From contig NW_021830024.1 of NCBI RefSeq assembly GCF_006345805.1, forward strand, positions 1-6,303: a stretch of DNA of 6,303 nt, given 5' to 3'. The position numbers and the translations under genes were made by a program. The stretch comes from Octopus sinensis. Lineage: Eukaryota. Positions within the stretch are counted from its first letter, which is position 1. Every line of letters starts with the position of its first letter. Under the pieces are notes generated by a model. That model was not told where the DNA came from. It made no database searches and was given only the letters and a program-made list of their open reading frames with translations. Positions 2,269 to 4,717 of this stretch are shown one piece after another.

Positions 2269-2661
2269 ATGTATGTATGTATGTATGCATGTATGTGTAT
2301 GTGTGTGTTTCCAATATGCATGCTTTTTTCATGCTATAATGGCCGGGTTGGGCATTGTTTTTTAGGATTTTCTTAGTCATTTAGTTCCGTTTTGGTTCCC
2401 TCACAATACTATTGGTGCCTTGTCTTCACAGCTGGATACTTTTTCCCACCCGTCCCTCCCCCCATCCCTCTCCTCCCTCTCCTCCCACCACCTCTCTCCT
2501 CCCGCCATGCTTTCTCTATCTCTCCCCCTGCCTGAAACCGCTCGACTGTGAAGTCAACATTGAAAGTTGTTGAGGCCCTAGATGAAGGGTGCAGACATAA
2601 TATAACTACGGGGGACCCAGATAGAAGTAGAGCTCACACTGAGACACACCGACACACCTAT

Positions 2662-2813
2662 AAACCCAGGAATAGCTGATGTGTTAAGAAGCTTGCTTCA
2701 AAACCAATGGTCTTGGGTCAGTCCTACTGCGCTGCACCATCACAAAATATCTTCTACAATAGGGATATTCTCAGCAAAGCTGATAAGTGGATTTGGTAAA
2801 TGGAAAGATGCCT
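2662..2813 (+). mobile_element. Duplicate of the diverged SINE 5' half
   Basis: Matches 1872-2025 apart from small indels. Confidence 0.72.
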
Positions 2814-2831
2814 ATAAAATCTATATATATC

Positions 2832-2864
<33 letters not shown>

Positions 2865-3027
2865 GGCGCAGGAGTGGCTGTGTGGTAAGTAGCTTGCTAA
2901 CTAGCCACATGGTTCTGGGTTCAGTCCCACTGCGTGGCACCTTGGGCAAATATCTTCTACTATAGCCTCGGGCCGACCAAAGCCTTGTGAGTGGATTTGG
3001 TAAACGGAAACTGAAAAGAAGCCTGTC

Positions 3028-3076
<49 letters not shown>

Positions 3077-3155
3077 GGTCCCGGGTTGAGTCGGGGTTAA
3101 CCACAGTAAATAAGGTACTCAATACATAGCAGAGTAAATTAATTTATTTTATAGA

Positions 3156-3213
3156 AGGAGCTTCTACAAGGACTAGAACTGTTTCATTCAAATGAAATCA
3201 TCAGGAAGCTCCT
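3156..3213 (-). ncRNA. Type I hammerhead ribozyme motif (minus strand)
   Basis: AGGAGCUUC-CUGAUGA-UUUCAUUUGAAU-GAAA-CAG UUCUAGUCC UUG-UA^GAAGCUCCU. Perfect 9-bp stem I, intact core, GUA triplet with predicted cleavage between 3165 and 3164. The first pair of stem II is a non-canonical U.U. Confidence 0.72.
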
Positions 3214-3258
3214 GATGATTCATTTGAATGAAACAGTTCTAGTCCTGTAGAAGCTCCT
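3203..3258 (+). ncRNA. Type I hammerhead ribozyme motif (plus-strand mirror copy)
   Basis: AGGAAGCUC-CUGAUGA(3212-3218)-UUCAUUUGAAU-GAAA(3230-3233)-CAG UUCUAGUC CUG-UA^GAAGCUCCU. Stem III is perfect; stem I is bulged. Confidence 0.55.
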
Positions 3259-3268
3259 TCTATAAATA

Positions 3269-3302
<34 letters not shown>

Positions 3303-3531
3303 TTGTGTGCCTGTGTTTGTCCCCCTAGCATTGCTTGACAACCGATGCTGGTGTGTTTACGTCCCCGTCACCTAGCGGTTCGGCAAAAGAAACCGATAGA
3401 ATAAGTACTGGGCTTACAAAAAGAATAAGTCCCGGGGTCGAGTTGCTCGATTAAAGGCGGTGCTCCAGCATGGCCACAGTCAAATGACTGAAACAAGTAA
3501 AAGAGTAAAAGAGTAAAGAGTCTATATATAT

Positions 3532-4259: not shown

Positions 4260-4597
4260 TATCCACGTGGAAACATAGGTATCTGGATTTCCGCATGGAG
4301 ATGTAGCTGTTTACATATTTTCTTGGATTTATTGCTGTCTAAACAACCACATGGAGAAAAGGGCGTCTGTACTGCTACATGGAGATGTACATCTGCAAAT
4401 ATCCACATGGAGGAAAAGGTGTCTCCTACTTCTACATGGAGATGTACATCTCCGAATATCCACATGGAGACATGGATGTCTACATTCTTACACTGAATGG
4501 AAGCCGTATAAATATCCACATGGAGACATGGGTGTCTATATTTCCACATGAAAACGTAGGTATCTAAATATCCCACATGGGAACATGGGTGTCTATA
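4260..4597. repeat. Degenerate 28-bp minisatellite, ~12 units, consensus about TATCCACATGGAGACATGGGTGTCTACA
   Basis: Core CATGG or a variant at 4266, 4294, 4322, 4350, 4378, 4406, 4435, 4463, 4491, 4519, 4547 and 4576. Confidence 0.85.
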
Positions 4598-4717
4598 TTG
4601 AGTGGGGTCGAGGAGATGGATTGTAACAAGTCTTAGACTCCACCTTCCCTCCTGACCCAAAAGTTAAAAAAAATATTTTAATTTCAACCAATTTATTATG
4701 ATTGAAATTAGTAAGGC

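Follow-up and report, generated by a model that had tools for sequence, protein, structure and literature searches.

The locus considered here lies in a window of 6,303 nt, the whole stretch of Octopus sinensis DNA that was analysed, and it raises the question of how two hammerhead ribozyme motifs came to stand back to back on opposite strands of one palindrome, and whether either of them can be expected to act. Re-measurement reproduced the arrangement given in the preliminary description, with arms at 3144-3206 and 3210-3269 that are reverse complements except for three 1-nt indels and are separated by a 3-nt spacer, and CTGATGA, GAAA and GTA were found again on both strands, so that both hammerhead cores are present.

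Architecture of the insertion and its parent element

The feature is a head-to-head insertion of a Penelope-like element (PLE) of the Hydra type, in which a long arm is joined to a shorter inverted arm, within the (TA)n stretch of a host repeat that we take to be a SINE. At 3074-3269 (196 bp), the insertion is larger than the palindrome first noted (3144-3269). Its long arm (3074..3210, minus strand) is the pseudo-LTR (pLTR) of the element, running from a putative transcription start (+1, position 3210) to the 3' end at (TA)n; over ~140 nt it matches a natural copy of the family, L031, from which it differs by one extra T in stem III and to which it is otherwise identical. The tail (3074..3141, minus strand) belongs to the long arm only and in full elements continues into the start of the open reading frame (ORF). 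The short inverted arm (3210..3269, plus strand) carries the second hammerhead copy, stops ~68 nt before the long arm's end and, compared with L031, lacks one T in stem I, one T in stem II, and an A downstream; all three 1-nt indels sit in homopolymer runs and are deviations from the natural family copy. The head-to-head junction spans 3205..3213 and includes C3211, a candidate cap-templated base.

The (TA)n target extends over 3029..3073 on the left side and, as read from the sequence, over 3270..3281 on the right side, and (TA)n is found on both sides of the insertion in 49 of 50 loci. The host repeat (2865..3507, plus strand) has its internal (TA)n interrupted by the insertion, the halves (2865-3055 and 3269-3507) aligning at 92% to positions 1-190 and 167-403 of a further copy in the window, at 198-600. 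No tandem array was found over the feature. Taken singly, this locus is probably an ordinary dead end. Elsewhere in the window, a tandem duplication of ~787 bp (1231-2045 and 2017-2834) contains parts of the SINE, and a degenerate 28/56-bp minisatellite lies at 4338-4599. By prediction, the tail itself terminates in a hairpin of 4 bp whose loop is AC-rich (3085-3100, minus strand), similar to the stem-loop reported at the RT start of the anole PLE.

The search of the animal's own genome gave 885 candidates, and the best 40 of these 885 were scored, at 99% identity. At L031, the repeat occurs twice in direct orientation (1487-1640 and 7695-7848, 99% identical) and encloses an ORF of the reverse transcriptase (RT) type together with a long simple-repeat untranslated region (UTR) that is common to other copies, the unit measuring ~6.2 kb from repeat to repeat; the earlier attribution of the type I hammerhead to the terminal repeat of a PLE is thereby supported. 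The ORF begins ~185 nt after +1 and carries the YRDD motif of RT. A structure model of the ORF at L047 (pLDDT 92), built from an alignment of 76 rows (76 of 151 available sequences), has telomerase TERT (3du5, E 4e-9) as its best fold match; Pfam RVT_1 was found in only 4 of the 76 relatives and not in the query ORF, and PDB sequence searches of the ORF gave nothing significant. The copy at L046 has a VY..YIG-type motif indicative of a C-terminal GIY-YIG endonuclease, for which Pfam matches were obtained in 5 of the 76 relatives and in Atlas neighbours; since the query itself has no direct Pfam match, we have moderate confidence that the parent element has such an endonuclease at its C terminus.

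The translation at L047 also contains DKT, a CxCX5C linker, CxxC, and CxH, as well as RWR, where sister families of the same genome have RWK. When the definition of the Hydra clade in section 11 of Craig et al. 2021 (PMC8557442) is used, in which short length (<3 kb) is given as a tendency, the parent element fits this clade of endonuclease-bearing (EN+) PLEs by the protein motifs of its translated sequence and its (TA)n target and departs from it in RWR and length. With C-terminal EN+ PLEs such as Hydra-1_Obim and Penelope-13_HM, the octopus family shares a single ORF for RT and C-terminal endonuclease, DKT, the CxCX5C linker, CxxC/CxH, the (TA)n target, and a type I hammerhead with U·U; on the other hand, its ~6.2-kb unit has a long simple-repeat 3' UTR where Hydra elements are usually <3 kb, RWR stands in place of RWK, loop III has 8 nt rather than 1-3 nt, and the hammerhead sequence is unlike that of Hydra-1_Obim. 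For Penelope-13_HM, the published description includes a copy that is inverted, truncated at its 5' end, and supplied with a hammerhead on the opposite strand (PMC8557442), which is comparable to the inverted arm here.

Several related elements were seen in the same genome. A sister Hydra-like family (L282-L293 and L299-L301) has intact ORFs of ~710 aa (47% identity); in its hammerhead, A·A forms the base of stem II, and a TATA-like box is located ~25 nt before stem I. Another PLE family is represented at L042:4212-5195 (minus strand) by a GIY-YIG C-terminal ORF whose Asn/Asp-rich insert recalls the N-rich inserts of rotifer Penelope; the GIY-YIG ORF near L020/L042 was considered as that of the parent and rejected, being located beyond the tail and assigned to another element. 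Retrozyme-like direct arrays of ~477-bp units were found at L295 (G000:C3), at about 2400-3500 and 5100-7000 on opposite strands, as two opposed blocks beside a Hydra-like ORF, each unit with a different type I hammerhead that has a U·U base and a 7-bp stem I opening with a 6-bp palindrome. At L015, L034, and L082, copies adjoin or sit inside the (TA)n flanks of other family copies.

The hammerhead motif and its predicted folding

The type I hammerhead of the minus strand (3159..3210, predicted cleavage after 3165) consists of stem I (3210-3205/3164-3159), the core (3204-3198), U·U and a short stem II (3197-3186), GAAA (3185-3182), and a stem III with a CUAG-centred loop, while the core on the plus strand lies at 3212-3218, with cleavage predicted after 3249. 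The 9-bp stem I described earlier for the minus strand is present in the window, but 3 bp of it come from the inverted arm, which adds three bases to the native 6-bp stem of the family.

Recurrence of the hammerhead core is not due to chance, as a 26-nt stretch of it occurs 655 times in the genome and its reversed control not once. Core positions are at least 97% invariant in 317 ungapped family arms, and subfamilies vary at 5 of 13 free positions and at 0 of 34 constrained ones (p=8e-4, with four junction-affected columns omitted), the varying positions being N7, loop II, and loop III. Stems I-III are identical between subfamilies and hence hold no variation that could show covariation. The U·U at the base of stem II had been regarded as atypical and as a possible sign of a dead copy; it is instead a family trait that replaces the G10.1-C11.1 pair, with T at 10.1 in 317 of 317 family arms and at 11.1 in 316 of 317, and it is typical of Hydra hammerheads: by our count, File S2 of Craig et al. 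2021 (PMC8557442) shows it for 14 of the 25 Hydra families. The Rfam search that had been suggested as a check returned no hammerhead family among 41 matches at E<=5.

As for folding, stem III with its CUAG-centred loop has a predicted energy of -12.8 kcal/mol in a dimer versus -1.4 kcal/mol per monomer. Lünse et al. reportedly dealt with PLE hammerhead dimers in 2017. Better pairing of stem III in a dimer is a reported property of PLE hammerheads (PMC4209133). In an 80-nt transcript from +1, the predicted probability of stem I is ~0.06, lowered by a competing hairpin (3150..3168, minus strand; 8 bp and -6.1 kcal/mol by prediction) that covers the cleavage site; in a second predicted competing fold, stem II is displaced and the catalytic GAA becomes hidden. 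Since variation avoids the constrained positions and alternative folds compete, the motif looks selected and yet would, according to these models, be mostly off at the transcript's 5' end.

The proposal that a hairpin of ~60 bp blocks the ribozyme fold agrees with a predicted minimum free energy of -91.6 kcal/mol for the palindrome versus about -14 to -17 kcal/mol for one arm. Because the complementary arm is transcribed first in either direction and the hairpin is so strong, read-through RNA should fold as the hairpin and not as a ribozyme. Self-cleavage of transcripts of both polarities, as envisaged in the preliminary description, appears unlikely from these predictions, and the second ribozyme would be a by-product of insertion. 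Arms beginning at the cleavage site numbered 12 among 30 inspected of 63, with 5 of the 12 explained by stem I homology; neighbouring positions served as arm starts about as often, giving a small cluster with no clear cliff. At L004, L204, L206, L212, L216, and L220, stem I homology connects the end of the inverted arm directly with what lies 3' of the cleavage site, through either a stem I fold-back or the use of cleaved RNA.

Junction positions, TATA box, and the extra C

Exact patterns found, in the animal's own genome, 1,291 loci where the arms meet head to head within 30 nt around the beginning of stem I, whereas the matching interval around the second AGCT, at the cleavage site, gave 43 loci, 30-fold fewer; the perfect junction was found at 252 loci, a junction identical to that of the window at 120 (CTGATGA subfamilies), and exact tails at 2,875 places, all of these counts being lower bounds that may include assembly duplicates. 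Among the matches listed, 100 tails led to 93 arms (one tandem pair counted twice), of which 41 start between -5 and +9 and only 2 between -28 and -6, 30 run past the TATA box, and 20 begin further downstream. Likewise, 13 of 20 held-out loci read by eye end between +1 and +9, 7 past the TATA box, and none between, these loci having been selected for an intact core, so that downstream ends are not visible.

The 50 junctions among the matches listed, all on C1 and including two near-duplicates, comprise 17 perfect ones, 11 of the window type, and 22 others, with 18 junction types in all, and in none of the 50 does an arm extend at least 2 bases upstream of +1; L017 and L021 join 4-7 nt upstream of +1, and the full copy L031 has its start at -14. 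In 45 of the 50 loci, the tail terminus is the end of one arm and not of the other, and short-arm ends fall at 66-76 in 48 of 55 inverted partners. The main junction types recur across subfamilies, and the window type occurs in both orientations relative to the tail.

Upstream of this boundary, 99 of 104 run-on arms have a TATAAAT starting 29 nt ahead of +1, with 13 of the 22 intervening positions varying, and a 6-bp palindrome at -7 to -2 in one subfamily forms the junction centre in 0 of 281 loci. Two other hammerhead-bearing repeats, known from long copies at sister loci, have no TATA at -29 from stem I but at about -25 and -17. A TATA-less internal promoter has been described for the Penelope element of D. 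virilis (PMC2377424).

At the boundary itself, all 22 full-length arms of non-perfect junctions continue with C as the following cDNA base, and C follows +1 in 27 of 48 arms of the 'other' class versus 1 of 118 native run-on arms. Sixteen of the 22 C cases could be partner-templated, the clean cases being 6 arms in 5 loci. Pairing of an added C with the partner's three Gs would give the window type (11), a junction 2 nt longer (4), or one 1 nt shorter (1), all of which were seen. Arms joined directly to (TA)n near +1 show no C among the matches listed, most of which repeat matches of the same locus, and the held-out loci, with one C and one A after +1, are too few to weigh on the extra C. In full-length insertions made by L1, an extra G at the 5' junction is a signature of the cap (PMC11702581). 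Summed depth at +1 rises ~20-fold in X2 and X3 and ~2-fold in X1 and X15, which was not counted as evidence of a start because the X runs are contigs, which cannot show one. About a third of the arms run through +1, and therefore another template exists. From these sequence patterns, the RNA of the element likely has its capped start where the palindromes are centred.

Formation of the palindrome

Any account of the palindrome has to accommodate the PLE origin, the (TA)n target, the two preferred 3' ends, the 5' limit at the first base of stem I, the TATA box, and the extra C. We think it probable that the stump was formed by two short cDNAs that ran off the capped 5' end of sense RNA and annealed together. 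Formation would then proceed as follows: (i) the pLTR promoter would start a capped RNA at the first base of stem I; (ii) the element protein would nick both target strands and let the two ends prime on the RNA at distances of ~140 and ~70 nt from the RNA start; (iii) both cDNAs would halt at the cap, often adding C; and (iv) the cDNAs would pair via AGCT, giving the perfect palindrome, or via the added C and a partner G, giving the window junction, and would then be filled in. The product, devoid of the TATA box, would be a dead end, its read-through RNA folding as the hairpin described above. Of 29 asymmetric junctions, 15 have the short arm as the further-reaching one and 14 the long arm, a comparison that tip deletions after insertion could blur, and at L232 both arms are full length and each is followed by C. 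For the anole PLE, cleavage and extension have been shown on both strands, and reverse transcription starts at two sites (PMC11167929). Two cDNAs are favoured because the short arm often reaches furthest and because the two arm ends match two RT start sites. Both arms share their subfamily letters in 44 of 50 loci versus 27% expected at random, the other 6 showing apparent single indels or substitutions, and each palindrome was therefore likely built anew from one source.

The same RNA start would also serve if a single cDNA folded back at its 3' end and copied itself into the inverted arm. Self-priming is a published proposal (PMC3846280), the window junction can be drawn as a hairpin with a 3-nt loop, and the concordance of the arms in subfamily letters is as expected of it; that concordance, however, is equally explained by one source element or one RNA, and fold-back of a tailed cDNA requires the long arm to reach at least as far as the short one, in conflict with the 15 of 29 junctions in which the short arm goes further and with L232, where two full-length arms are each followed by C. 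We regard fold-back as rather unlikely. It is quite unlikely, too, that +1 is a 3' splice site, a point at which RT stalls at stem I, or a plain AGCT microhomology hot spot: although +1/+2 is AG behind a pyrimidine-rich stretch and the intron end of D. virilis Penelope maps to the 5' end of helix I (PMC4209133), the 48 'other' junctions are diverse, with no common upstream exon after the arms, 31 of 99 arms have A at -1, the second AGCT is used at a small fraction of the loci (43 versus 1,291), and the constant distance to the TATA box and the C are both left unexplained by splicing or stalling.

A self-propagating mini-element or retrozyme, in which two ribozymes cut RNA of either polarity, might be argued from the high number of copies and from the dominance of two types of junction (252 and 120 loci). 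Such a unit would have no promoter and a predicted hairpin of -91.6 kcal/mol, and 18 junction types in 50 loci, recurrence of the main ones across subfamilies, and the occurrence of the window type in both tail orientations make this very improbable. A long-read chimera or assembly artefact might be suspected because the window is an entire 6.3-kb contig and its indels lie in homopolymers, but is hardly credible when the same junction recurs at 120 loci, most of the listed ones on large contigs, one SINE is split cleanly by the insertion, and the inverted junction also appears, as a loose end, in contigs of the public run X15, which may be the source sample.

A broader and somewhat doubtful possibility is that the hammerhead span functions much as the R region of retroviruses does. 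RNA would run from the first base of the ribozyme to the cleavage site of the downstream pLTR, and strong-stop cDNA would jump to the RNA 3' end, rebuilding promoter and ORF; the ~1,300 palindromes would then be failed jumps in which two strong-stop cDNAs met. If true, this would give PLE hammerheads a role and jointly account for pLTRs, tails, and inversions; PMC8557442 (section 15) names as open questions both the origin of PLE inverted ends and the role of the hammerhead.

Inverted pLTRs, tails, and palindromic junctions all have precedents (PMC3846280), while the position of the palindrome centre at the putative RNA start looks new; a literature search with scant coverage of subscription papers found no report linking the junction to a capped start. 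The closest precedent is the inverted pLTR and tail arrangement of Arkhipova et al. 2013 (PMC3846280), with a head-to-head pLTR, a junction palindrome, a tail on one arm, and a putative pLTR TATA as here; the tail is ~68 nt here versus 30-40 there, and where these authors propose antisense self-priming, the octopus junctions pile up at one base and show the additional C, as a sense template with a cap would lead one to expect. Pairs of hammerheads on opposite strands, separated by 100-700 bp, were already known (PMC4209133). Poseidon of the green anole, studied in vitro by Frangieh et al. 2024 (PMC11167929), is alike in its AT-rich target, in two RT start sites that define the tail, in the extension of both strands, and in having uncleaved RNA as its main template; it belongs to another clade, its ORF starting inside the hammerhead and not ~185 nt after +1, and the accessible text of that study gave no account of inverted junctions. 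In L1 twin priming (PMC11702581), both target ends prime and an extra G marks full-length cDNA, but L1 inversions involve no sequence duplication, whereas in the octopus stumps the same 70 nt is present in each arm. Non-LTR retrozymes (bioRxiv 10.64898/2026.07.22.740005) are likewise non-autonomous PLE-derived repeats with type I hammerheads, yet form direct tandem arrays and not inverted pairs.

With ~1,300 natural junctions, one sharp end point, and a cap-like signature, the family speaks for a sense template with priming at both ends of the target, and its value lies in this family-wide pattern rather than in the single locus, as it names exact bases and makes the mechanism testable. The numerous long hairpins may feed small-RNA silencing. 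Among individual loci, L129 and L155 have junctions with repeated short template switches, each stopping at the same stem I boundary, and at L023 the spacer between the arms contains a piece of the element's own RT coding region.
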